A model generated the notes under the pieces. It saw nothing but the letters and a program-made list of their open reading frames with translations. It was not told where the DNA came from and did no database searches. A stretch of DNA of 64,000 nt. Source: Escherichia phage inny. The position numbers and the translations under genes were made by a program. The stretch lies in sequence record MN850601.1. One strand, written 5' to 3'. Below, in pieces: positions 3,203 to 14,196 of this stretch. Numbering within the stretch: position 1 is the stretch's first letter; every line of letters begins with the position of its first letter.

Positions 3203-3607
3203 TTATTGTAGCTTAAGTGAACTGCGAAGACGTTCCTCTTGCTGATCACGAATATGTTGTGGAACCTCATGAATTGAATCGTTACCGTGCCTATTCTCCA
3301 CAACTAAAGAAATAACTTGATAACCAAACTCTTCAGCAAGAGTTAAATAAGGTTTAAGTTCTTTTTCTGTAGTAGAGGTATTAGAAACAATAATCTTTTC
3401 AACACCATACTGCATATATTTTTGTACTTTGACACGACACCATTGGTGTGCTTTATGGATATTCTCTTGTTTCCACTCATACACACCATCTTCAGTGTAG
3501 TGGTATTGATCTGCCTCACAAATAGGCCAATGATTTTCAGAGATAATTTCTGCTACTGTAGATTTACCTGCACCTGAAACACCACGTAAAATGATAAGTT
3601 GTTTCAT
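3203..3607 (-). CDS. P-loop kinase (putative polynucleotide 5'-kinase)
   Basis: 134 aa; Walker A GVSGAGKST at N-terminus; stop/start directly adjacent to the ligase-like gene upstream. Confidence 0.55.
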   Translation of the reverse strand: MKQLIILRGVSGAGKSTVAEIISENHWPICEADQYHYTEDGVYEWKQENIHKAHQWCRVKVQKYMQYGVEKIIVSNTSTTEKELKPYLTLAEEFGYQVISLVVENRHGNDSIHEVPQHIRDQQEERLRSSLKLQ

Positions 3608-4540
3608 TTAGCCTCCAAAGAAGTTTTCTATTTCTTTACGTCGCTCTTGTGGATCGAGAGCAGCCCATTGAGCCTTCGTAAATTTATTTCGAAGCCATTC
3701 TAGCAAAGTATAATATTCTTCGTCAACAATTTGTTTAGCATTGTTTGGGTTGTCCCAAATCATATCCCACTTCTTATTGCCACCACGCATAAGGAATTTC
3801 TTAGCAAGATAGTATGGTGACTTAATCTTTAAGAGTAAGTTAAACGGATAGTTTGTTTCACGAACAACAAAGCCTTCGTGTCTACAATGTTTAGACATTT
3901 CAACAACATCTGAAAATTTAATCATTGGATAAACTTCAGGACGTTTAAATTTTGTAATAGATGCAATCCCATCAAGAACACCTTCAGGTAACATGAAACT
4001 TGTCCCATCAAGATTTTGAATTCTTGCTCCAATTAAGTATGCGCCTGGTTCTTCTTCGACAATATGTGGATCAGAAGGATCACAGATTTCAAAAAGGAAA
4101 GTTGCTTTTGCACTTTCTGTCCACTTAATGAAATACTCTATGTCATCACACTCGGAAACAATACGGTTCTTGGCAATAGTTGCAAAGTCTGACTCTAGGC
4201 TCCCTGTTGTTGATACAACAAGTTGCCCTTTGTACACACCTACAGATGCCATAAAACCGTTTACTTTACGGACAGCATCTACAAATTCATCTCCTGGAAG
4301 ATCTGTACCATTCTCAAAACGATTAAAGATTTTAGTAAAAGGCCAAATAACAATATTATCTTCTGAATCAACAACCAACCCACGACAATCTAAAAGTCGT
4401 TTGTCAACGTTCCACAAGTTATCCCAGAATACATTGTTTTTGTATTTAAGTACAGCAAGACCAGCATACTCTCCAGATTTAACTTCTTTTTTATGCACTA
4501 AACCTTTTGCAATCAGGTCATCACAATTGAACTTAGCCAC
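3608..4540 (-). CDS. nucleotidyltransferase, RNA ligase-like
   Basis: 310 aa; candidate motif I lysine in RKVNGFM; flanked by kinase and metallophosphoesterase genes. Confidence 0.5.
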   Translation of the reverse strand: MAKFNCDDLIAKGLVHKKEVKSGEYAGLAVLKYKNNVFWDNLWNVDKRLLDCRGLVVDSEDNIVIWPFTKIFNRFENGTDLPGDEFVDAVRKVNGFMASVGVYKGQLVVSTTGSLESDFATIAKNRIVSECDDIEYFIKWTESAKATFLFEICDPSDPHIVEEEPGAYLIGARIQNLDGTSFMLPEGVLDGIASITKFKRPEVYPMIKFSDVVEMSKHCRHEGFVVRETNYPFNLLLKIKSPYYLAKKFLMRGGNKKWDMIWDNPNNAKQIVDEEYYTLLEWLRNKFTKAQWAALDPQERRKEIENFFGG

Positions 4541-4541
4541 C

Positions 4542-5093
4542 TTAATCTCCTTTGATTATCTTATGATGATCTACAACAATAATATCACGCTTATCCATAA
4601 TAGAGATGATTTCGTCAAAATGTAAGATTTTCCCGTGTGCATCCCAACCAACATCCAACATTTTCCCATACAAATGATCAGGGAATGATCCGTGAGAGTG
4701 TCCGTGTAGCATGATTGATCCATGCCCTTGTTTATTCCAGGCAGCCATAGGGTAATGACTTAAGACGAAGAACAGCTTCTGATATTTCACTTCGTCATAA
4801 TACACAACTTCTCCATACTCTGCAAGCACTTTTCTGTGTTTACTGTAATCATGGTTCCCAACACAGTAAGTAATATCCCCTTGGAGACGGGAAGCAATCT
4901 TACGGGTATCTTCTTCAGTCCCGAAACAGAAGTCCCCAAGATGGTACATCTTTACTCCTGGTGTTGTGGCACATTTATTCCATGCTTCGATCAGTGCTTC
5001 TGTCATATGCTCCATATCTTCCCACGGGCGATATTCAGGAGCAAACTCTCGGATACGTTTGTGCATAAAATGCAAATCACTTGTAATAAACAT
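4542..5093 (-). CDS. calcineurin-like metallophosphoesterase
   Basis: 183 aa; MPP signature motifs in canonical order: SDLHF, LGDF, VGNHD, LHGHSHG. Confidence 0.75.
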   Translation of the reverse strand: MFITSDLHFMHKRIREFAPEYRPWEDMEHMTEALIEAWNKCATTPGVKMYHLGDFCFGTEEDTRKIASRLQGDITYCVGNHDYSKHRKVLAEYGEVVYYDEVKYQKLFFVLSHYPMAAWNKQGHGSIMLHGHSHGSFPDHLYGKMLDVGWDAHGKILHFDEIISIMDKRDIIVVDHHKIIKGD

Positions 5094-5455
5094 TAGTATA
5101 ATCCCTCGCTGAATAGTTCACTGTTGTGACCATTTCTTTCGTAGTTAATTTGTTTGGCGTTATCTGCAATGATATAAGCATCTTTGCGACTCCACCAGTT
5201 ATAATACTGATCAATAAACCCTTGATTATCAGGTAAGCAAAACAGTTTATCAATCAATCCTGCATCTTTTAAAACATTAAGTTGTGCAGATAGTACAGGA
5301 TTTGCATGCCTAACACAAGGAATAATTAACTCTTCGCCATTATTGAGAATATACTTATTCGCAGCGCAGACTATAACACGTTGAGCATAGTGATCCTCAC
5401 CAAGCCAAGTAAGAGGTTGGTAACAAATATCATGTTGATTAGTAGCGCACATCAA
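5093..5455 (-). CDS. hypothetical protein (120 aa)
   Basis: ORF track; start overlaps stop of next gene. Confidence 0.5.
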   Translation of the reverse strand: MMCATNQHDICYQPLTWLGEDHYAQRVIVCAANKYILNNGEELIIPCVRHANPVLSAQLNVLKDAGLIDKLFCLPDNQGFIDQYYNWWSRKDAYIIADNAKQINYERNGHNSELFSEGLY

Positions 5456-5601
5456 TTTTCTCCATACTCTTTTAATCTATCAGCGAAAAAACTGTAATCA
5501 GGAAGTAAAAGATCATTACTCGTATCGCTACAGTTTTCTTCCTCTTTATAGATAAAATGCCCTTCATCCTCTTCTTGCTCTGACCAAACTGAGTAATGCA
5601 T
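5452..5601 (-). CDS. small acidic hypothetical protein (49 aa)
   Basis: unlisted short ORF read by eye; ATG at 5601, stop overlapping the ATG of the 5093..5455 gene (ATGA-type coupling); weak SD. Confidence 0.25.
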   Translation of the reverse strand: MHYSVWSEQEEDEGHFIYKEEENCSDTSNDLLLPDYSFFADRLKEYGEN

Positions 5602-5610
5602 AATACCTAC

Positions 5611-5952
5611 TTAATAGTTAACACGTTTAATTTCAACACCATAGGATGAAATAAAATTTTCCTTAGCTAACATATATTTACCAGCAGCAGAAGGATTTGA
5701 TGTATGAACATAGATAGTTTTAAGAGCATCCCATTCACCAGCGTACAACATACATTCTACATCTAAGAACGCATGATAGCCTTCTTGATCTTCTCCAAGA
5801 TCATTATCGAAGTGTATTTCTGAGATATTATTGAAATTATCTTCATCTGAAACAAAAGATGACCAATCCCCAAAAGATTTTAACCAAATGGCATCCTCAT
5901 AACCATAATCTTTAGGATCTCTTAAATCGTCTAACCAAATAATTTTAGCCAC
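5611..5952 (-). CDS. hypothetical protein
   Basis: ORF track 5611..5985 trimmed to GTG at 5952 preceded by GGAAGGGGG SD and lying 3 nt after the upstream gene stop. Confidence 0.45.
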   Translation of the reverse strand: MAKIIWLDDLRDPKDYGYEDAIWLKSFGDWSSFVSDEDNFNNISEIHFDNDLGEDQEGYHAFLDVECMLYAGEWDALKTIYVHTSNPSAAGKYMLAKENFISSYGVEIKRVNY

Positions 5953-5954
5953 TA

Positions 5955-6146
5955 TCAACCCCCTTCCTGTTTCTCTTCTTTCCAAGTTTTACCTTTATCT
6001 ACCAATTGCTTAGAAACAGCAAATCTTTCTCCATTGACATAAAACAGATAAAGAATAAAGGATTTTCCTATAGTTACAGTATCTACTACTTCTACACGCT
6101 TTACACCTTGCATGTATTTGGCTTTACCTGAATAAATAAGGAACAT
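5955..6146 (-). CDS. hypothetical protein (63 aa)
   Basis: ORF track. Confidence 0.4.
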   Translation of the reverse strand: MFLIYSGKAKYMQGVKRVEVVDTVTIGKSFILYLFYVNGERFAVSKQLVDKGKTWKEEKQEGG

Positions 6147-7209: not shown

Positions 7210-7578
7210 CTAATTAACGTCAGCACTATGATTGTTGAGAGTATAGGATACTCCATCGCCCAAGTCAACATGAATCTCAACTCCTAACTGTCTTTCTAAT
7301 GGTAAACGTTTTGAGAATTGATAATTACAAAGTTTGCAATCTAAGTCAAGCAACTCATGTTTGCTTAAACCTGGGATGATAACTTTGCTTCCCACTGTCC
7401 ACTCAATACCTTCAAAGTTATCTCTTCTTTTCAAAATGTCAAGTAAGAAGATGATTTGTTGCCATTCCGTAGACAAGTCTTCTTCATAGAACGCAGAACA
7501 AAAAGTTTTATCATCGTAGAAAGCATACATTATGCCTCCATCTACTGTTTCACTTCTAACGTAACGTGTGACCCTCAT
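7210..7578 (-). CDS. hypothetical protein (122 aa), first gene of the minus-strand block
   Basis: ORF track; AGGAGGG SD upstream of ATG at 7578. Confidence 0.5.
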   Translation of the reverse strand: MRVTRYVRSETVDGGIMYAFYDDKTFCSAFYEEDLSTEWQQIIFLLDILKRRDNFEGIEWTVGSKVIIPGLSKHELLDLDCKLCNYQFSKRLPLERQLGVEIHVDLGDGVSYTLNNHSADVN

Positions 7579-7931
7579 TATTCCCTCCTGTATAGCTCTG
7601 TAACGAGCTAATGGCCTTTAAGATATGCAATCACCTTACCTCACAGTAAAACTCGTTACAATCGTTTTTAGGAGGTTTAGGTTGTACTTAAAAATAATCT
7701 AAAAAGGTGTTGACAAACGCAAAAAAGTATGCTACCCTAACCCCCGAAAAACGCCGAGCGCAGCGAGGGGGTGTTATCTAATCTTGTGATACATGATCTA
7801 ACAGACAACTGAGTAGTCTACATATAGCACTATGTTATGTCTATAATACTAACATACATACTCTATACTAACAATAGATTCTTTATTAATTTTATTATTA
7901 ATTAAATAATAAATTAAATAATAAATATCTA

Positions 7932-7960
7932 TTGACTTTAGATCTATCTGTATGTAGAGT
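7932..7960 (+). promoter_or_regulatory. sigma70-like promoter TTGACT-N17-TGn-TAGAGT
   Basis: -35 at 7932..7937, TG at 7953..7954, -10 at 7955..7960; 40 nt upstream of the prs-like gene. Confidence 0.55.
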
Positions 7961-7999
7961 AGAGAACATAAAGTCCTAACTCAACTAAGGAGATAAACA

Positions 8000-8893
8000 A
8001 TGAAAGTTAGTATTCTACATGGTGTTGACTGTTATGTTACTGATGTAGACGTTAAAGTCTTTACATTCTCTGGTGGAGAACAACATGTTCAACTAGACAC
8101 GAATCTATCAGGTTTCAATCATGCTACAGACAGAATCTTACTCTCTTTAGAAGTAAGATCTGCTAAAGACTTGATGACTTTGGTTATGACTAAGAATGCA
8201 TTGGACAATATGCTATATCATAAACCATATTGTGTTGATTTACTCATGTTGTATGTGCCGTATGCACGACAAGACAGAGTGTGTGAGCCTGGGGAAGCAT
8301 TCGGAGTTAAAGCCTTTGCTTCTATAATTAATTCATTAAATTTCTCACGTGTTATCGTTGCTGATCCACATAGTGATGTTACTCCGGCAGTGTTTGACAG
8401 ACTCTGTGTAATACCTCAAGAAGAGATTGCTTACGAAACTTTAAAGTGGAAGTTACGTATGGAGAATTTTGCTCTTGTTAGTCCTGATGGTGGTGCTCTT
8501 AAGAAAATATTTAAATTATCTAAGAAAATGTCTTTAGATGTGTTCTGTGCAGAGAAGGTTAGAGATACTGCAACAGGTGCTATTGTTCGTACAGACATTT
8601 CTGTACAGGATTTCAATAAGCGTAACCTGATGATCGTAGATGATATCTGTGACGGCGGTAGAACTTTTATTGAATTGGCTAAAGTGCTACGTGCTCGTAA
8701 CGCAGGTAAGATTGAGTTATATGTTACACACGGTATCTTTTCTAAAGGTCTTAAAGAGTTAAGTGAGCACTTTGACTGCATTCATTCTCTTAATGTGTGG
8801 GAAGATAACATCCAAGAAGATTCCGGTGTTCTTGTTAAGAATCAGTCAGATTTGCAACAACAAATTGTATCTCCATACGTGTGGAATTTTTAA
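8000..8893 (+). CDS. prs: ribose-phosphate pyrophosphokinase family protein (Prs-like; possibly an ADP-ribose pyrophosphokinase)
   Basis: 297 aa; Prs hallmark YVPYARQDR and PRPP-binding loop NLMIVDDICDGGRTF; AAGGAG SD. Confidence 0.85.
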   Translation: MKVSILHGVDCYVTDVDVKVFTFSGGEQHVQLDTNLSGFNHATDRILLSLEVRSAKDLMTLVMTKNALDNMLYHKPYCVDLLMLYVPYARQDRVCEPGEAFGVKAFASIINSLNFSRVIVADPHSDVTPAVFDRLCVIPQEEIAYETLKWKLRMENFALVSPDGGALKKIFKLSKKMSLDVFCAEKVRDTATGAIVRTDISVQDFNKRNLMIVDDICDGGRTFIELAKVLRARNAGKIELYVTHGIFSKGLKELSEHFDCIHSLNVWEDNIQEDSGVLVKNQSDLQQQIVSPYVWNF

Positions 8894-8903
8894 ATAATAA
8901 GTG

Positions 8904-8932
8904 TTGACAATAGGGAGTATGCTTAGTAAGAT
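8904..8932 (+). promoter_or_regulatory. sigma70-like promoter TTGACA-N17-TAAGAT embedded in an 8-bp inverted repeat
   Basis: -35 at 8904..8909, -10 at 8927..8932; GGGAGTAT (8912..8919) and ATACTCCC (8930..8937) form a perfect palindrome across the -10. Confidence 0.55.
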
Positions 8933-8964
8933 ACTCCCACACTAACAAACAAGGAGACATAACT

Positions 8965-10698
8965 ATGAATATTTTTGCACCTTTTGCTACTGATTGGTAT
9001 AAACCTGGTCACAAGCAGATGTACAACCAAAATACAAAACTCATTTTCTCTAATTTAACTCCTCGTAATGATAAAAACTTTGCACACTATGCAGATCGTG
9101 AAGCACGTGGTGTAATTGTTTTAGGTATTCGTCGAGCAGTTACTGATGCTCTTGTAACTATGTGGGATAGCTTCTTTAAAATGTCTCGTAGTGCAGCAGT
9201 AAATAAATTTTATCGTATGTCTAAAAATGCATTAGGTGCTTCTGCTCCTTCTGCTGAATGTTGGGGAGAATTGCACGATTTAGGTTATCTTCCGCTGGAA
9301 GTTCGATCTCTGCCAGAAGGTGTTTTGTGTCCTATTGGTGTTCCTGTGTTTACTGTGCATAATACTTTAGAAAAATTCTTTTGGTTAACTAACTATGTGG
9401 AAACACTATTGTCAGATGAAACTTGGAAGACAATGACTAATGCTACAGCAGCTTTTCAGTATAAGCGTATTGCTATGGCATATGCGATGGCAACGTGTGA
9501 TAATATTGATCATGTTAACTTCCAGTGTCATGATTTTAGCCTACGTGGTTTAAGTAATATCGAAGATGGTTATAAGAGTGGTATCGCTCATTTGGCATCT
9601 TTCACAGGAACAGATAACATTCTGGCTATTGAGACTGTGCATGATTATTATGGTATTGATTATGATCAGTTTGTTGCAGGTTCTATTCCGGCAACAGAAC
9701 ATTCAGTAGCAACGACTAACATTGGAGCTATTGTTGAAGATCTGAAGAAACATTTCCCACATCTTAAAGATGATGTTGATGGGCTTCGTTATGTAGCAGA
9801 GAAAGAGTTTCTTCGCCGCTATATTGAAGAAATTGTTCCAGAAGGTTTTTGTTCATATGTAGCAGATTCTTATGACTACTGGGCTGTCTTGACTCGCATT
9901 CTGGTCGAGTTGAAAGATTCCATTATGTCACGAAATGGTCGTCTTGTTATTCGTCCAGATTCAGGAGATCCGGTTAAAGTTGTTGCAGGATACAATGTTG
10001 AATCTTTTGATAACTATGAAGACCTTTTAAATAATGGTATTGCTACAGCCACTGAAGTAGTTCATTTGGCTGATGTTAATAAGTATTACAATGTTCTTCA
10101 GGATTGCAGTGTTGCTGATTGTATTGATGAAACTTATGAGATTCCTTATTGTGAAGCAGTAGGTTCTATTCAAATCCTTTGGGAAGTGTTTGGTGGTACT
10201 ATCAACCGAAAAGGCTACAAGGTTCTTGATCAGCACATCGGTATGATTTATGGTGATTCTATTACTGTTGAACGAGAACACGAAATCTTACGCCGACTGA
10301 AGAAGAAAGGTTTTGCAGCTTCCAATATTGTATTTGGTGTTGGTAGTTATACTTATCAGTTCAATACACGAGATACTTTTGGTTTTGCTGTTAAAGCAAC
10401 AGGTAGTATCATCGGTGAACACGAAATTTTGGTAAGTAAGGAGCCTAAAACTGATCCTGGTAAACGTTCTGCAAAAGGTTTTATTAAGGTTGTTAAGGAT
10501 ACAAACGGTAAACTTTCTCTCGTGGATAATCTTTCTTTTAAAGATATTCAAGATGAAGACAATGAGTTAAAAGTTATCTTCAGGGATGGTACGGTTATTA
10601 CACCACAAGTAGAAGGACGTGATGAAACATTTACGGATATCCGCAATCGTGTTGATGTAGAGGTTCTTCGTACTATGGGAACCATCCAGGTTGACTAA
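8965..10698 (+). CDS. nadV: nicotinamide phosphoribosyltransferase family protein (NAMPT/NadV-like)
   Basis: 577 aa; N-terminal ATDWYKPGHKQMY matches the NAMPT ATDSYK...H.KQY signature; adjacent to the Prs-like gene. Confidence 0.85.
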   Translation: MNIFAPFATDWYKPGHKQMYNQNTKLIFSNLTPRNDKNFAHYADREARGVIVLGIRRAVTDALVTMWDSFFKMSRSAAVNKFYRMSKNALGASAPSAECWGELHDLGYLPLEVRSLPEGVLCPIGVPVFTVHNTLEKFFWLTNYVETLLSDETWKTMTNATAAFQYKRIAMAYAMATCDNIDHVNFQCHDFSLRGLSNIEDGYKSGIAHLASFTGTDNILAIETVHDYYGIDYDQFVAGSIPATEHSVATTNIGAIVEDLKKHFPHLKDDVDGLRYVAEKEFLRRYIEEIVPEGFCSYVADSYDYWAVLTRILVELKDSIMSRNGRLVIRPDSGDPVKVVAGYNVESFDNYEDLLNNGIATATEVVHLADVNKYYNVLQDCSVADCIDETYEIPYCEAVGSIQILWEVFGGTINRKGYKVLDQHIGMIYGDSITVEREHEILRRLKKKGFAASNIVFGVGSYTYQFNTRDTFGFAVKATGSIIGEHEILVSKEPKTDPGKRSAKGFIKVVKDTNGKLSLVDNLSFKDIQDEDNELKVIFRDGTVITPQVEGRDETFTDIRNRVDVEVLRTMGTIQVD

Positions 10699-10719
10699 AT
10701 AAAAACTTCGTGATAAGAT
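10691..10719 (+). promoter_or_regulatory. sigma70-like promoter TTGACT-N17-TAAGAT overlapping the nadV stop
   Basis: -35 at 10691..10696, extended TG, -10 at 10714..10719. Confidence 0.5.
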
Positions 10720-10769
10720 TAAGGTAAGGAGAGCCTGCAACTGCCCTGGATGGGCTTCACGAAGGATTT

Positions 10770-10991
10770 ATGAAACAACATAATTTTTATTTTCGTTGCC
10801 GAGCCTGTAACAGACACTTGACTAATCATTCCCGTAGAGACAGGAATGGTAATATTCAAGAGTCGGATCTATGCTCGATTTGTACAAGTTTGGCATTCGA
10901 CGACAGTCCCGAAAGGGTTTATCAACATCAAAGTGTAACTGATCTTCTTCTAAATTACACAGCACCAGAGGAGGAATTAGATTTCACATAA
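10770..10991 (+). CDS. hypothetical zinc-ribbon protein (73 aa)
   Basis: ORF track; CRAC...CSIC cysteine pairs. Confidence 0.5.
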   Translation: MKQHNFYFRCRACNRHLTNHSRRDRNGNIQESDLCSICTSLAFDDSPERVYQHQSVTDLLLNYTAPEEELDFT

Positions 10992-11004
10992 TTAAGGAAA
11001 CAGT

Positions 11005-11115
11005 ATGTCTACAGAAATTATTTTTGGCTTATCTGTTTTTATTGCTATTGTATCTTTTGTATGCGGTTATACACTAGGTTACAGATCAAGAAAAAATATT
11101 GTAAAAACTAGTTGA
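11005..11115 (+). CDS. small hydrophobic protein (36 aa)
   Basis: unlisted short ORF; AAGGAAA SD 7 nt upstream of ATG; single hydrophobic helix IIFGLSVFIAIVSFVCGYTLGY. Confidence 0.3.
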   Translation: MSTEIIFGLSVFIAIVSFVCGYTLGYRSRKNIVKTS

Positions 11116-11141
11116 CAACATAGCTAGTTATTTGCTAAGAT
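11112..11141 (+). promoter_or_regulatory. sigma70-like promoter TTGACA-N18-TAAGAT
   Basis: -35 at 11112..11117, -10 at 11136..11141. Confidence 0.5.
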
Positions 11142-11171
11142 AAGCACAAGTTAAACAAAAAGGAGAAAACT

Positions 11172-11438
11172 ATGACAGAAAAGACTTATGGTAAAGAATT
11201 GATTGAGAAGCACGTATTGATTGATAATAAAGGTGGAGCAATCTTTATTTTTGAACCTGAATCAGTTCTTACTGAAAACGAAAATGGTAGCGTTAGCCTT
11301 AAAACAGAAAGTTTGGTAATTGACTTCCTTGCTCTTCTGGATGAAATGGGGCTTCCTCACGAAGAAGAAGCAGCTATTGCTTTGATTGCAGTTCTTCTGG
11401 AGAAACGCGAAGCTGGTGAAATGACCCAGTATGCTTAA
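11172..11438 (+). CDS. hypothetical protein (88 aa)
   Basis: ORF track; AAAGGAG SD. Confidence 0.55.
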   Translation: MTEKTYGKELIEKHVLIDNKGGAIFIFEPESVLTENENGSVSLKTESLVIDFLALLDEMGLPHEEEAAIALIAVLLEKREAGEMTQYA

Positions 11439-11445
11439 TATTCAA

Positions 11446-11521
11446 GGTTCCATAGCTCACTGACGAGAGCGCACACCTCATAAGTGTCGAGGGCAGGGAT
11501 TGTAACCCTGGGGAACCACCA
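11446..11521 (+). tRNA. tRNA-Met/Ile2-type (anticodon CAT), non-canonical T-loop
   Basis: hand-folded cloverleaf: acceptor GGTTCC/GGAACC, D-stem GCTC/GAGC, anticodon loop CTCATAA, encoded CCA; T-loop ATTGTAA (A54, T58) instead of TTCGAAT. Confidence 0.6.
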
Positions 11522-11552
11522 TTTAAAAGGAGGTGCTATGCATCTCCTATAT

Positions 11553-11638
11553 GCAAGTGTGGTGGAATTGGTGATACACATTGTGCTTAAAACGCAACGC
11601 TTAAATGATTGAGGGTTCGAATCCCTCCACTTGCACCA
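11553..11638 (+). tRNA. tRNA-Leu (anticodon TAA), type II
   Basis: acceptor GCAAGTG/CACTTGC, 3-bp D-stem, anticodon loop CTTAAAA, long variable arm, T-arm GAGGG-TTCGAAT-CCCTC, A73, CCA. Confidence 0.85.
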
Positions 11639-11640
11639 AC

Positions 11641-11746
11641 GCCTAGTAGGGTATTTGGTAATTCCGAGGCCATCAAAGCCTGAAAAATATGTTAGACCGT
11701 TTTGTCTAACTAAATACGAAATATGGTTCGATTCCATAACTAGGCT
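11641..11746 (+). tRNA. atypical 106-nt tRNA-like element (candidate anticodon TCA)
   Basis: perfect 7-bp acceptor GCCTAGT/ACTAGGC, D-like arm with GG loop, 4-bp stem with loop CATCAAA, extra 7-bp hairpin GTTAGAC-CGTTTT-GTCTAAC, canonical T-arm TATGG-TTCGATT-CCATA; no CCA encoded; too long for a standard tRNA. Confidence 0.3.
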
Positions 11747-11781
11747 CCCGATTTAAATAGTAATTTTTTAATAAAAATATC

Positions 11782-11810
11782 TTGACATTTACTTAGTTTT
11801 TTGTTATAGT
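11782..11810 (+). promoter_or_regulatory. sigma70-like promoter TTGACA-N17-TATAGT with extended TG
   Basis: -35 at 11782..11787, TG at 11802..11803, -10 at 11805..11810; 12 nt upstream of the tRNA at 11822. Confidence 0.6.
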
Positions 11811-11821
11811 CATTATGAAAA

Positions 11822-11903
11822 CGGGGTGTATCTCACCTGACTTCTAATCAGGCGTTAACCGAGTAATTGGAGTATGCAGGTTCGAATCCTGTCACCCCGG
11901 CCA
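11822..11903 (+). tRNA. tRNA-Arg-like (anticodon TCT) lacking a canonical D-arm
   Basis: acceptor CGGGGTG/CACCCCG, only 7 nt (TATCTCA) before a perfect anticodon arm CCTGA-CTTCTAA-TCAGG, 23-nt variable region with CCGA-GTAA-TTGG hairpin, T-arm GCAGG-TTCGAAT-CCTGT, G73, CCA. Confidence 0.45.
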
Positions 11904-11921
11904 AAAAGTTTTAAAAACTAC

Positions 11922-11951
11922 TTGACAAGCAAGATAGTTTTATGTTAGATT
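11922..11951 (+). promoter_or_regulatory. sigma70-like promoter TTGACA-N17/18-TTAGAT
   Basis: -35 at 11922..11927, TG then -10 around 11945..11951. Confidence 0.55.
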
Positions 11952-11966
11952 TAAAGTATGGTAACA

Positions 11967-12056
11967 GGAAGGTAGGGCGCAGCGGTGCGCAACCAGGTTT
12001 GAACCCTGGCCCATTGTAGCGATACGGTGATGGTTCGACTCCATTATCTTCCTCCA
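11967..12056 (+). tRNA. tRNA-Ser (anticodon TGA), type II
   Basis: acceptor GGAAGGT/ATCTTCC, anticodon arm CCAGG-TTTGAAC-CCTGG, 19-nt variable arm, T-arm GATGG-TTCGACT-CCATT, CCA. Confidence 0.85.
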
Positions 12057-12075
12057 AATTCGCTTAGGAGCTTTA

Positions 12076-12227
12076 TGAATTATAAAACTATTGGACAGAT
12101 TGTTACCGGAGTTAAGATTGTAAATAATAAAGTTGTTTATGAGTATTCTAATCTTCAACAATCTGAAGATGGTAAGAATATTCGTATGGTAAAAGCAGAA
12201 CAAAAAGATTCCGGTTGTTTTGAATAA
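12076..12227 (+). CDS. small hypothetical protein (50 aa)
   Basis: ORF track 12027..12227 starts inside tRNA-Ser; trimmed to ATG at 12076 behind TAGGAG SD. Confidence 0.3.
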
Positions 12228-12235
12228 TTAAGAAC

Positions 12236-12321
12236 GGTAGATTGGTGAAATGGTAGCCACAACAGTTTGCTAAACTGTCGTCGGAAACGGCGTGTAGGTT
12301 CAAGTCCTACATCTACCGCCA
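12236..12321 (+). tRNA. tRNA-Ser (anticodon GCT), type II
   Basis: acceptor GGTAGAT/ATCTACC, 3-bp D-stem GTG/CAC, anticodon arm ACAGT-TTGCTAA-ACTGT, long variable arm, T-arm GTAGG-TTCAAGT-CCTAC, G73, CCA. Confidence 0.85.
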
Positions 12322-12377
12322 AGTTATCTTTAATGTAGCTTGTTGCTCTTAGTTGCTTGGTGTAACTTTTTGGAAGG

Positions 12378-12439
12378 ATGGCTGCAACCATCTTACTTTA
12401 ATAGAGTAAACTTTCGGCAGATGGCCCCCACCATCTTAC
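12378..12439 (+). repeat. two near-identical hairpins (GGATGG-loop-CCATCTTAC), spaced about 45 nt
   Basis: 12378..12397 AAGGATGG-CTGCAA-CCATCTT and 12422..12439 AGATGG-CCCCCA-CCATCT; both followed by TTAC; stems resemble the T-stem of the upstream tRNA-Ser. Confidence 0.5.
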
Positions 12440-12491
12440 CGATACCTCATAGTTAGTGGTGCGAACACTGGCTATTTTAAAGATAATTTAT

Positions 12492-12567
12492 ACATCGTTA
12501 GCTTAGTTGGTAGAGCAAGGGGCTTTTAACTCCAAGGTCGAAGGTTCGAATCCTTCACGATGTACCA
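12492..12567 (+). tRNA. tRNA-Lys (anticodon TTT)
   Basis: perfect acceptor ACATCGT/ACGATGT, D-arm GCTT-AGTTGGTA-GAGC, anticodon loop CTTTTAA, T-arm GAAGG-TTCGAAT-CCTTC, A73, CCA. Confidence 0.8.
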
Positions 12568-12572
12568 AACAC

Positions 12573-12659
12573 GTAGGTATCGCATAGCGGCAATTGCTGG
12601 AGACTGTAAATCTCCTGCCCTTCGGGGCTTCGTTGGTTCGAGTCCAACTACCTGCACCA
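12573..12659 (+). tRNA. tRNA-Tyr (anticodon GTA), type II
   Basis: acceptor GTAGGTA/TACCTGC, anticodon arm GGAGA-CTGTAAA-TCTCC, variable hairpin GCCC-TTCG-GGGC, T-arm GTTGG-TTCGAGT-CCAAC, A73, CCA. Confidence 0.85.
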
Positions 12660-12666
12660 AATTAAA

Positions 12667-12751
12667 GATGGATTGGCCTAGTGGTTGGGCGACGGACTGT
12701 TAATCCGTGAACGAAAGTTCTAGCAAGGTTCAAATCCTTGATCCATCGCCA
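12667..12751 (+). tRNA. type II (Ser-like architecture) tRNA with anticodon GTT (Asn-type)
   Basis: acceptor GATGGAT/ATCCATC, 3-bp D-stem GCC/GGC, perfect anticodon arm ACGGA-CTGTTAA-TCCGT, 15-nt variable arm with GAAC-GAAA-GTTC hairpin, T-arm CAAGG-TTCAAAT-CCTTG, G73, CCA. Confidence 0.7.
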
Positions 12752-12830
12752 AATAGTGCTTGTAGAGTTAATAGAAACCTCTAGAATTTTCTAGAATTGT
12801 AGGTATCAAATCCTACCAAGCAAATATTTT

Positions 12831-12905
12831 GCTCCTATCGTATAACGGCTATTACGGTTGCCTTGTAAGCAACTTATCAGGGTTCGAGTCCTTGTGGGAG
12901 CACCA
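12831..12905 (+). tRNA. tRNA-Thr (anticodon TGT)
   Basis: acceptor GCTCCTA/TGGGAGC (one G-U), anticodon arm GTTGC-CTTGTAA-GCAAC, T-arm CAGGG-TTCGAGT-CCTTG, A73, CCA. Confidence 0.8.
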
Positions 12906-12927
12906 ATTTAACTCTAAAGGAGTGTAT

Positions 12928-13251
12928 GTGACAGAAAAAGAGTTAGAGAAATATTTTAATATCAATGTTTTCGATGGTTTTGATGATATTGAAGATGTTG
13001 AAAGATATTATGAAGTAGAGTTAGATAAGGATAACATTGTAATTCTTTCTGCCACTTATGATTGTGCATATTATGAAGGCGAATCTCACGTTTATTTCTA
13101 TGATATGAAAACATCTTTGTTTTATGAAGTACACGCATATCATTGTTCTTGTTATGGCTTAGAAGGTCAGTGGGAACCTGAAGAAATAGGTGATTTGAGC
13201 TTTACGGTTGCATATCTAAACAGACGTGGTGCATCTACTATTTTAAAATAA
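12928..13251 (+). CDS. hypothetical protein (107 aa)
   Basis: ORF track 12829..13251 begins inside tRNA-Thr; trimmed to GTG at 12928 behind AAGGAG SD. Confidence 0.5.
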   Translation: MTEKELEKYFNINVFDGFDDIEDVERYYEVELDKDNIVILSATYDCAYYEGESHVYFYDMKTSLFYEVHAYHCSCYGLEGQWEPEEIGDLSFTVAYLNRRGASTILK

Positions 13252-13265
13252 ATATTAAAAGCCTC

Positions 13266-13295
13266 TTGACAAAGGGGCTAATAATATGTTAGAGT
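13266..13295 (+). promoter_or_regulatory. sigma70-like promoter TTGACA-N18-TGT-TAGAGT
   Basis: -35 at 13266..13271, TG at 13287..13288, -10 at 13290..13295; upstream of tRNA-Gly. Confidence 0.55.
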
Positions 13296-13306
13296 AATAT
13301 TGTTAA

Positions 13307-13381
13307 GCGGGTATAGTGTTAATGGTAGCATATGAGGTTTCCACCCTCCAGGTGCAGGTTCAAGTCCTGTTACTCGCTCCA
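13307..13381 (+). tRNA. tRNA-Gly (anticodon TCC)
   Basis: acceptor GCGGGTA/TACTCGC, anticodon loop TTTCCAC, T-arm GCAGG-TTCAAGT-CCTGT, U73, CCA. Confidence 0.8.
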
Positions 13382-13480
13382 AGATTATTTAAATGGAATC
13401 GCTAGAGAAAATTTCTCTTTTCGCTCATGGTTTTCTCCTTCAAACTCTAGCGGTTCTTTTTAAGTGATTTTTAGTTTTAT

Positions 13481-13555
13481 TGGAGATTAGCCTAGTGGGA
13501 AGGCAACGGCCTTTGAAGTCGTGATGACTAGGTTCGATTCCTAGATCTCCAGCCA
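13481..13555 (+). tRNA. tRNA-Gln (anticodon TTG)
   Basis: acceptor TGGAGAT/ATCTCCA with U1-A72, D-arm GCC-TAGTGGGAA-GGC, anticodon arm ACGGC-CTTTGAA-GTCGT, T-arm CTAGG-TTCGATT-CCTAG, G73, CCA. Confidence 0.8.
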
Positions 13556-13562
13556 ATATTTA

Positions 13563-13638
13563 CAGTGCGTAGCGCAGTTGGTAGCGTGGGAGCCTTGGAC
13601 GCTTCAGGTCGCAGGTTCGAGTCCTGCCGCACTGACCA
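13563..13638 (+). tRNA. tRNA-Pro (anticodon TGG)
   Basis: acceptor CAGTGCG/CGCACTG, D-arm GCGC-AGTTGGTA-GCGT, anticodon arm GGAGC-CTTGGAC-GCTTC, T-arm GCAGG-TTCGAGT-CCTGC, A73, CCA. Confidence 0.85.
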
Positions 13639-13643
13639 AATTT

Positions 13644-13718
13644 GCAGAGATAGCTGAGACGGATTAGTGCTACCCTGAAAAGGTAGAAAGGATGGATCGT
13701 TACCATCTCTCTGCACCA
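13644..13718 (+). tRNA. tRNA-Phe (anticodon GAA), non-canonical T-loop
   Basis: perfect acceptor GCAGAGA/TCTCTGC, perfect anticodon arm CTACC-CTGAAAA-GGTAG, T-arm GATGG-ATCGTTA-CCATC (A54 and T58 swapped relative to consensus), A73, CCA. Confidence 0.7.
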
Positions 13719-13795
13719 GATAACACCATCCAAGGAGAATACTTGGTTAACTGTCAATAGCACATTGAGGCTTCTTACAGTGGTGTACTTATTAT

Positions 13796-13880
13796 GGCTA
13801 AGTGGTGGAATGGTATACACGATACGCTTAGAACGTATTGCCCCAAGGGATTGTGAGTTCGAGTCTCACCTTAGCTACCA
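13796..13880 (+). tRNA. tRNA-Leu (anticodon TAG), type II
   Basis: acceptor GGCTAAG/CTTAGCT, 3-bp D-stem GTG/CAC, anticodon arm ATACG-CTTAGAA-CGTAT, variable hairpin, T-arm GTGAG-TTCGAGT-CTCAC, A73, CCA. Confidence 0.85.
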
Positions 13881-13895
13881 AATTATTACAGGTTT

Positions 13896-13974
13896 CGCGG
13901 GATAGAGGAGTCTGGTCGTCCTCGCCAGTTTCATATGCTGGAGATCGTAGGTTCAAATCCTACTCCCGTTACCA
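13896..13974 (+). tRNA. tRNA-Met/Ile2-type (anticodon CAT), second copy, unpaired 1-72
   Basis: acceptor CGCGGGA/TCCCGTT with C1 opposite U72, D-arm GAGG-(11 nt)-CCTC, anticodon arm CCAGT-TTCATAT-GCTGG, T-arm GTAGG-TTCAAAT-CCTAC, A73, CCA. Confidence 0.65.
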
Positions 13975-14032
13975 ATAAATACCTCCCTTCTGGTGTAATG
14001 ATTAAATTACATTGACACTTCAAGGAACTCAT

Positions 14033-14115
14033 AGCCGGGTAGATTTAAAAGAGTATGGTACTCAATATGGCTCCAAACCATAGATCAGGGGGTTCGATTC
14101 CTCACCTTGCTGCCA
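14033..14115 (+). tRNA. tRNA-Trp-like (anticodon CCA) with expanded D region
   Basis: anticodon arm TATGG-CTCCAAA-CCATA, T-loop TTCGATT, G73, CCA; best acceptor AGCCGGG/CCTTGCT has one C-U mismatch and leaves about 9 extra nt before the D-stem GAGT/ACTC. Confidence 0.4.
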
Positions 14116-14120
14116 ATTAT

Positions 14121-14196
14121 TGTGGTATCGTACAGATGGTTAGTACACTCGACCGATAATCGAGAAACAACGGTTCGACTCCGTTTACCACGACCA
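14121..14196 (+). tRNA. tRNA-Ile (anticodon GAT)
   Basis: acceptor TGTGGTA/TACCACG, D-arm GTAC-AGATGGTTA-GTAC, anticodon arm CTCGA-CCGATAA-TCGAG (C33), T-arm AACGG-TTCGACT-CCGTT, A73, CCA. Confidence 0.75.

Follow-up and report, generated by a model that had tools for sequence, protein, structure and literature searches.

The nicotinamide adenine dinucleotide (NAD+) reconstitution pathway 1 (NARP1) is a recently discovered and widespread counter-defence of phages, carried by at least 4% of them according to the literature, which consists of the enzymes Adps and Namat and was discovered by Osterman et al. in 2024 (bioRxiv 10.1101/2024.02.11.579819). The first enzyme of phage SPbetaL1, a relative of phosphoribosyl pyrophosphate (PRPP) synthetase (Prs), was found to convert ADP-ribose (ADPR) and ATP to ADPR-pyrophosphate (ADPR-PP) and gave no PRPP-synthetase product, while the second, NAMPT-like enzyme favours ADPR-PP over PRPP. 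The same study reported an adjacent Namat gene at 97% of Adps-clade genes and almost never at bacterial prs, and found that, in phage Bas63, genes 79-80 confer protection from SIR2-HerA without a need for host pncC or nadR (10.1101/2024.02.11.579819). Bas63 and Bacillus phages are the cases in which NARP1 has been demonstrated to protect, and the enzyme activities have been established for the homologues of SPbetaL1, ICP1, DyoEdafos and P. foliorum. Here, a stretch of 64,000 nucleotides (nt) from Escherichia phage inny (MN850601.1; termed the window, with position 1 as its first letter) was analysed, and two neighbouring genes at positions 8000 to 10698, designated adps and namat, very probably constitute a NARP1 module of a phi92-like virulent E. 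coli phage rather than a classical pairing of Prs with Nampt.

Structures of both enzymes have been published. Lan et al. described the SPbetaL1 Namat (9W5X and 9W5W) and defined a "selectivity clamp" made up of a variable loop, the selectivity-clamp loop (SCL), and a conserved helix, the selectivity-clamp helix (SCH), with the pattern GS-X-Phi-X-Phi-X-Phi-TRD (PMC12774641). As a rule for the clamp loop of Namat, the third residue is R, K or Y, and the stacking residue occupies the third or fourth position. Liu et al. described the Adps of ICP1 with ADPR/ATP and with ADPR-PP/AMP, identifying its contact residues, an essential Lys185 and a "PP loop"; Adps has also lost the C-terminal alpha11-alpha12 (filament) module of PRPS (PMC13586617). 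Several related pathways are known. NARP2 consists of Nampt and Nmnat, as in phage KVP40, and NARP3 of PnuC and NadR, while in NARP1-AP a Macro phosphatase is added against aRES; aRES-type cleavage yields ADPR-1''-phosphate. A RyR-domain glycosidase is located inside the NARP1 of DyoEdafos.

In the window, adps (positions 8000 to 8893, plus strand) starts with ATG and encodes a protein of 297 amino acids (aa) with a predicted PRPS fold, and namat (8965 to 10698, plus strand), also with an ATG start, encodes a 577-aa protein with a predicted NAMPT fold. The sequence-only reading had placed a Prs-like and a NAMPT-like gene back to back, with which the list of open reading frames (ORFs) and the family matches agree; the two genes adjoin on the same strand and are separated by a 71-nt gap. 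Each ATG is preceded, at a distance of 7 to 8 nt, by the Shine-Dalgarno sequence AAGGAG (7987 to 7992 for adps and 8951 to 8956 for namat, both plus strand), and ribosome-binding sites (RBS) are annotated at the same places in phi92. The 297-aa protein matched Pfam families PF00156 and PF14572, more weakly PF13793, and PHROG 619, "ribose-phosphate pyrophosphokinase" (E 5e-91). The 577-aa protein matched PF04095 (E 6e-38) and PHROG 448, "nicotinamide phosphoribosyl transferase" (E 7e-188). The published vicinity rule for NARP1 is a Prs-family and a Nampt-family gene within 10 genes of each other, and here they are direct neighbours.

To place the pair among known phages, positions 7600 to 11000 were used as a megablast query, which returned 56 phage records, 55 of them covering the whole region at 95 to 99.9% identity. 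All were phi92-like phages (Justusliebigvirus, Stephanstirmvirinae), the best being vB-Eco-KMB37 at 99.9%, and every annotated relative labels the genes "ribose-phosphate pyrophosphokinase" and "nicotinamide/nicotinate phosphoribosyltransferase". The lineage is already covered by Osterman et al. in their supplementary tables. Their Table S1 includes phi92 (FR775895_00103, which is the window protein except for D10G), EmilieFrey (Bas61), PaulScherrer (Bas60) and JohannJBalmer, with the entry "Namat within 10 genes: Yes", and Table S2 labels the 577-aa proteins of phi92, EmilieFrey and PaulScherrer "Adps-associated". The phi92, Bas60 and Bas61 proteins in these tables are at least 99% identical to those of the window. 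The NARP1 membership of the pair is thus already known from Osterman et al. (2024), and nothing about it is conceptually new, as the lineage is present in the tables of the discovery paper.

When the 297-aa protein was compared by BLASTP with validated Adps and with Prs, the highest score was that of ICP1 Adps (157 bits, 40% identity), followed by Bas63 (136), DyoEdafos (90), SPbetaL1 (83) and E. coli Prs (73 bits, 28%). It scored 118.8 against the broad model TIGR01251 (cut-off 113), where four experimentally supported Adps range from 82 to 139 and E. coli Prs reaches 423. This was the only Prs model that it passed, as all of the tighter NCBIfam models were failed (NF002320, 99.6 against 297; NF002095, 98 against 296; and nine others), with E. 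coli Prs scoring 533 on NF002320; the protein is therefore outside canonical Prs by these models. The sequence-only reading had called for an alignment to Prs and to phage Adps with attention to pocket residues, and this comparison favoured Adps, since 10 of the 12 ICP1 contacts are retained: F23, R90, H124, D163, K186, D214, D215, D218, T222 and F223, equivalent in the same order to F18, R87, H121, D161, K185, D212, D213, D216, S220 and F221 of ICP1 (residues from PMC13586617). Across 89 homologues these ten residues are 99 to 100% conserved, all being invariant except D218. The codon of Lys186 (8555 to 8557, plus strand) corresponds by alignment to the essential catalytic-site lysine, Lys185 of ICP1 and Lys162 of SPbetaL1, and no activity remains after the substitution K185A or K162A (PMC13586617; Osterman Table S3).

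The PP loop of the 297-aa protein, DDICDGGRTF (aa 214-223; 8639 to 8668, plus strand), is identical to that of Bas63, compared with DDICDGAASF in ICP1, DDMIDTGGTL in E. coli Prs and DDLSSFGGTF in SPbetaL1, and within it I216, C217, D218, G219, G220, T222 and F223 are 96 to 100% conserved among the 89 homologues. An AlphaFold2 (AF2) model of the protein had a predicted local distance difference test score (pLDDT) of 95 and a PRPS fold, and its structural matches were PRPS structures only, with template modelling (TM) scores of approximately 0.73 to 0.75 and 20 to 25% identity; the ICP1 Adps entries cited in PMC13586617 were not among the matches in the two PDB libraries searched. The protein is 297 aa long versus 315 aa for E. 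coli Prs and ends in a predicted helix at residues 282-295. This helix occurs in 38% of homologues, at 7% identity, and, as so few have it, looks like a lineage-specific tail. In these respects the protein resembles validated Adps, not Prs, and we infer that it is an ADP-ribose pyrophosphokinase.

For the 577-aa protein, the best PDB sequence matches were SPbetaL1 Namat (9W5X/9W5W, E 8e-118), Haemophilus ducreyi NadV (E 6e-100) and human NAMPT (E 4e-48), and its AF2 model (pLDDT 91) was matched by Foldseek to 9W5X with a target-normalised TM score of 0.94, versus approximately 0.89 for human NAMPT. Its score against KVP40 Nampt was 134 bits at 33% identity, below those of the Namats. The catalytic core residues D10, Y12, F191, R194, D217, H246, R330, D332, G430 and D431, which align with D13, Y15, F189, R192, D215, the catalytic His, R306, D308, G360 and D361 of SPbetaL1 Namat, are all invariant in 66 sequences. 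The model NF006629 was discarded as a means of telling Namat from Nampt, as both classes lie above its cut-off (window protein 461, KVP40 508, SPbetaL1 594).

The two classes differ at the clamp helix. Its motif in the window protein is GSYTYQFNTRD (aa 460-470; 10342 to 10374, plus strand), aligned with GSFTYQYNTRD, GSYTYQYMTRD and GSYTYQYVTRD in the Namats of SPbetaL1, Bas63 and ICP1, respectively. The adenine-stacking positions are thus aromatic (Y462 and F466), and among the clade homologues Y or F occupies motif position 3 in 66 of 66 and position 7 in 63 of 66. The Nampt controls are without the aromatic pair: KVP40 has GGGLLQQLDRD, and H. ducreyi NadV (9KE8), the closest solved bona fide Nampt-type relative, has GAQTYQRNTRD, in which the backbone of the motif is shared and both clamp aromatics are absent. 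The clamp-loop region (aa 35-47, NDKNFAHYADREA; 9067 to 9105, plus strand) was aligned to T38-S39-R40 of SPbetaL1 and S40-D41-K42-W43 of Bas63. Its third residue is K37, equivalent to R40 of SPbetaL1 and K42 of Bas63 and conserved in 64 of 66 sequences, and the fourth is N38, where most of the clade has L. Conservation in the loop extends to F39 (63 of 66) and H41 (66 of 66), either of which may supply the stacking contact of the clamp loop, which acts from the partner protomer.

Compared with SPbetaL1 Namat, and likewise with the ICP1 and KVP40 enzymes, the protein carries two insertions. Insertion 1 (aa ~252-278; 9718 to 9798, plus strand) is a predicted extension of a helical hairpin (AF2 helices 245-263 and 271-290), and insertion 2 (aa 343-399; 9991 to 10161, plus strand), which follows the ribose-binding RPDSGDP, is predicted to form a small alpha/beta subdomain (pLDDT ~89-96). 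Insertion 2 is absent from SPbetaL1, ICP1 and KVP40 and has a longer counterpart in Bas63. Both are retained in the 65 closest homologues, from phage contigs of approximately 150 kb, with occupancies of 97% and 93%, respectively, and the identity within insertion 2 is 26%. They are compatible with NARP1 function, as the Namat of Bas63, which is active in vivo, has a larger insertion at the second site. On the strength of its clamp residues and core, the 577-aa protein appears to be Namat-type and is presumably a nicotinamide ADP-ribose transferase. One metagenomic homologue, the 867-aa P0217, was considered as an Adps-Namat fusion and rejected. It is a Namat interrupted by an intein-like element of approximately 290 aa, which splits the catalytic RPD/SGDP and whose central part resembles a homing endonuclease; the first residue of the element is Cys, and its final VCGN precedes a Ser.

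Three relatives, phi92, Antha and PaulScherrer, were read in detail, and neither reading frame is disrupted in any of them. In five of the six comparisons with these phages there were synonymous differences, and the ratio of nonsynonymous to synonymous differences (pN/pS) was 0 to 0.09 (adps, 0 to 0.04 in two comparisons; namat, 0.03 to 0.09). Both genes are under strong purifying selection. In the GenBank record of phi92, the NAMPT-like gene contains an annotated "hypothetical tRNA" of 151 nt (L011 1946-2096; approximately 9557 to 9707 of the window); this is probably an annotation artefact, as ARAGORN found no tRNA at that place in the window. Four matching records are labelled "Campylobacter phage", with Campylobacter jejuni as host, and match the region of the E. 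coli phages, and one of these, MG065656.1 (Campylobacter phage C3), encodes a homologue of the 297-aa protein with 98.7% amino acid identity. Either these labels are wrong or the isolates were contaminated, probably.

Among characterized systems, the NARP1 of Bas63 (JohannRWettstein) has the same arrangement, with a Prs-like gene followed by a NAMPT-like gene on one strand of an E. coli myovirus. The two systems share an identical PP loop, a clamp helix that differs at few positions (GSYTYQYMTRD versus GSYTYQFNTRD) and a large insertion after RPDSGDP in Namat. They differ in that identity is 35% for Adps and 40% for Namat, Bas63 belongs to the Ounavirinae and inny to the Stephanstirmvirinae, and the Bas63 genes are separated by 45 nt, whereas the 71-nt gap here contains a promoter-like site; the clamp loop has W43 in Bas63 versus N38. 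In vivo data exist for Bas63, whereas the inny pair is known here from its sequence. In SPbetaL1 Namat, the residues contacting nicotinamide, ribose-phosphate and AMP are kept or conservatively replaced in the window protein (F392 by Y462, Y396 by F466 and R40 by K37), but identity is 39% and the SPbetaL1 protein is 86 residues shorter, without the insertions. SPbetaL1 Adps is approximately 35% identical, its PP loop is different, and the two SPbetaL1 genes form a tight operon in which they overlap. The closest validated Adps is that of the Vibrio phage ICP1, which has the DDICDG part of the loop in common, while the window protein exceeds it by 17 residues, has the predicted C-terminal helix and carries C95 and E225 in place of F92 and F223.

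The Nampt (NadV) of KVP40, which acts with the Nmnat NatV in NARP2, as well as human NAMPT and H. ducreyi NadV, have the same NAMPT fold and the same catalytic core, catalytic histidine included. These Nampt-type enzymes differ in preferring PRPP, in having no aromatic clamp pair and in having no Adps partner. The pair was accordingly placed outside NARP2, given the Namat-type clamp, the low identity to KVP40 Nampt, the listing of the phi92 protein as "Adps-associated" and not "Nmnat-associated", and the lack of an Nmnat domain in the ORFs scanned within positions 1 to 16 kb and of an Nmnat annotation elsewhere in the window. NARP1-AP of the Vibrio phage Gary (Adps, Macro phosphatase and Namat) and the RyDEP-containing NARP1 of the mycobacteriophage DyoEdafos have the same core enzymes, but no gene for a Macro-domain ADPR-1''-phosphatase (Adpp) or a RyR-domain glycosidase is located between or beside the inny pair, whose small flanking ORFs returned no Pfam match to either domain.

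With regard to expression, the sequence-only reading had given each gene its own strong promoter. A sigma-70-like site was found 5' of each gene by consensus scan, but their strength is an inference from the consensus only. The site 5' of adps (7932 to 7960, plus strand; TTGACT, 17 nt, TAGAGT) matches the consensus at 9 of 12 positions; its -35 hexamer is the same in phi92, Antha and PaulScherrer, with one substitution in the spacer of PaulScherrer. The site in the 71-nt gap (8904 to 8932, plus strand; TTGACA, 17 nt, TAAGAT) matches at 10 of 12 positions and is unchanged in the three relatives, the gap of PaulScherrer differing at one base 5' of the -35 hexamer. Generic sigma-70-like matches were not enriched between positions 7400 and 11500 (19, versus 14.9 +/- 4 expected from shuffles), and the generic scan was therefore dropped as promoter evidence. 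The whole window has three copies of the more specific pattern TTGAC-N17-20-TAAGAT, versus 0.28 expected, and none of 100 shuffles reached three. The copies, at 8904, 10691 and 11112, are all on the plus strand, within 2.3 kb, and each just 5' of an ORF, and may represent a phage- or class-specific promoter consensus for a rightward block. A separate promoter for each gene is plausible on these sites. Co-transcription from the first putative promoter is also possible, since no terminator-like site was found on the plus strand between adps and namat.

An inverted repeat with perfectly matching 8-bp arms, GGGAGTAT / ATACTCCC, and a 10-nt loop (8913 to 8938, plus strand; arms 8913-8920 and 8931-8938) overlaps the -10 hexamer of the second promoter-like site, and its sequence is unchanged in phi92, Antha and PaulScherrer. 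The repeat could serve as an operator or form a hairpin in RNA; lacking a T-run, it is no typical terminator. A permissive Rfam scan of positions 7400 to 11500 for riboswitches or other RNA elements returned only GA-cis (E 0.36), with 21 bits versus a gathering score of 34.7, and this candidate was rejected.

If the pair works as NARP1, a NAD+-depleting defence such as SIR2-HerA/Nezha, DSR2, type I Thoeris, SPARSA, Kongming or a similar system would cleave NAD+ to ADPR and nicotinamide. Adps would then pyrophosphorylate the distal ribose of ADPR at its 1'' hydroxyl, taking the beta,gamma-pyrophosphate from ATP and giving ADPR-PP and AMP, and Namat would join ADPR-PP and nicotinamide to form NAD+ and pyrophosphate (PPi), with no host salvage enzyme taking part. 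The gene structure, families, signatures, predicted folds, selection and catalogued identity were obtained here, and the mechanism is taken from characterized homologues; by that analogy the phi92-like lineage would have both enzyme activities, a suitable timing of expression and protection against defence. That the pair rebuilds NAD+ from ADPR and nicotinamide had been put forward as a candidate function, and it is favoured by the clamp motif, the Namat structure matches, the Adps-like scores and the catalogued homologues. The accompanying statement that sequence alone cannot tell whether the Prs-like enzyme makes PRPP or acts on ADPR is outdated, as the published structure-based signatures permit a fairly confident call. 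Several observations weigh on the other side. The margin by which the 297-aa protein scores higher with SPbetaL1 Adps (83 bits) than with E. coli Prs (73 bits) is small; the adenine/ATP contacts F92 and F223 of ICP1 are replaced by C95 and E225, two positions that are also unconserved in the Adps of Bas63 and SPbetaL1; and the predicted helix 282-295 blurs the "lost C-terminal alpha11-alpha12" signature of Adps. In Namat, N38 stands where Bas63 has the adenine-stacking W43, the nearest conserved aromatic, F39, being one residue further on. A literature search for experiments on NAD+ depletion or NARP1 with phi92, Bas60 and Bas61 found none. Finally, Namat enzymes keep PRPP-dependent synthesis of nicotinamide mononucleotide (NMN) in vitro, with approximately half the PRPP activity of human Nampt, which leaves room for some classical activity (PMC12774641).

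This last property bears on the function that all GenBank records assign to the pair, that of classical salvage, in which the 297-aa protein would make PRPP, the 577-aa protein would make NMN as a Nampt/NadV, and host NadR or PncC would complete NAD+. Since Namat retains activity on PRPP in vitro, this function and NARP1 are not fully exclusive. Among solved relatives of the 577-aa protein, H. ducreyi NadV ranks second, NF006629 does not part Namat from Nampt, and the TIGR01251 cut-off is just passed by the 297-aa protein. The same labels, however, proved wrong for Bas63, where protection had no need for pncC or nadR, and for SPbetaL1, whose Adps gave no PRPP-synthetase product, and the 297-aa protein fails the tighter Prs models and sits in the score range of validated Adps. 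In addition, the ADPR-PP-specific clamp aromatics are present here, whereas KVP40 Nampt and H. ducreyi NadV have neither, and no Nmnat gene was found within positions 1 to 16 kb of the window, so that classical salvage is judged very unlikely. There is likewise only a slim chance that the pair derives from NARP1 but has an altered specificity, for another ADPR derivative, or an expression uncoupled from the first gene. The two Namat insertions, confidently folded in the model, N38 in the clamp loop, the promoter-like site and conserved inverted repeat between the genes, and the predicted lineage-specific helix of Adps would fit such a change. Against it, the Namat of Bas63 works as NARP1 in vivo although its insertion at the second site is larger still, the clamp loop varies among functional Namats, the core and clamp-helix residues are all canonical, and no accessory Macro/Adpp or RyR/RyDEP gene is present in or near the operon. 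That the genes are decaying or non-functional remnants is scarcely credible, given the intact frames in three relatives, the identity of at least 95% over the region in 55 of 56 records, the catalytic residues invariant across 66 to 89 homologues and the strong RBS sites; pN/pS values of at most 0.09, wherever synonymous differences exist, contradict decay. A more speculative and rather unlikely proposal is that Namats of the phi92/PVP-SE1 type, with their two insertions, divergent clamp loop, and separate promoter with inverted repeat, form a sub-class of NARP1 with a property absent from the SPbetaL1 prototype, conceivably regulated expression, another oligomeric state, an interaction with Adps or the use of a further ADPR-derived substrate.

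The surroundings of the pair were also examined. The sign of the GC skew flips at approximately position 8000, to the left of which the genes lie on the minus strand, indicating that adps and namat open a rightward transcription block; this block continues into 15 clustered tRNA genes (11446 to 14196). Pfam scans of selected ORFs between positions 111 and 13251 identified no Macro/Adpp, RyR/RyDEP, Nudix, Nmnat or PnuC/NadR domain, and the annotation of vB-Eco-KMB37 names no accessory NARP gene across the whole window, the remainder of which consists of structural and replication genes by the same annotation. NARP1-AP, NARP2 and NARP3 therefore find no support at this locus, as neither the scanned ORFs nor the KMB37 annotation contained accessory domains. 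With no third gene in the gap or next to the pair, the locus would be a minimal two-gene NARP1.

An RNA-repair-like cluster is located on the minus strand at positions 3203 to 5985, 2 to 5 kb 5' of the NARP1 genes. It includes an AAA_33 nucleotide kinase (3203 to 3607), a T4 Rnl1-type RNA ligase (3608 to 4540), a metallophosphoesterase (4542 to 5093) and a 124-aa protein with a PF20274 "cyclic-phosphate processing receiver" domain (E 4e-13; 5611 to 5985), all on the minus strand. From these domains the cluster looks like a tRNA-repair counter-defence set and hence like a second anti-immunity module near NARP1. The DNA ligase of the phage (1346 to 2461, minus strand) is of the ATP-dependent type (PF01068) and not NAD+-dependent, so that the interest of the phage in NAD+ is not explained by its own ligase. 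Outside phages, the chromosome of the cyanobacterium Geminocystis sp. NIES-3708 (AP014815.1; L009 6001-9191) carries an Adps-like gene, whose product (P0062) is 45% identical to the 297-aa protein, followed by a NAMPT-like gene and then by a NrtR-type Nudix/winged-helix regulator. NrtR regulators respond to ADPR. If this one senses ADPR, the locus would amount to a NARP1-like pair of a cellular organism, controlled by an ADPR sensor.

Recognition of the inny pair as NARP1 corrects the pyrophosphokinase and phosphoribosyltransferase labels that every GenBank record of the lineage still carries. By the published logic, sensitivity to aRES-type NAD+ phosphorolysis is expected, as the phage has no Macro phosphatase. 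If the pair is indeed NARP1, these therapeutically used, broad-host-range coliphages should resist NAD+ depletion of the SIR2, TIR and DSR types.

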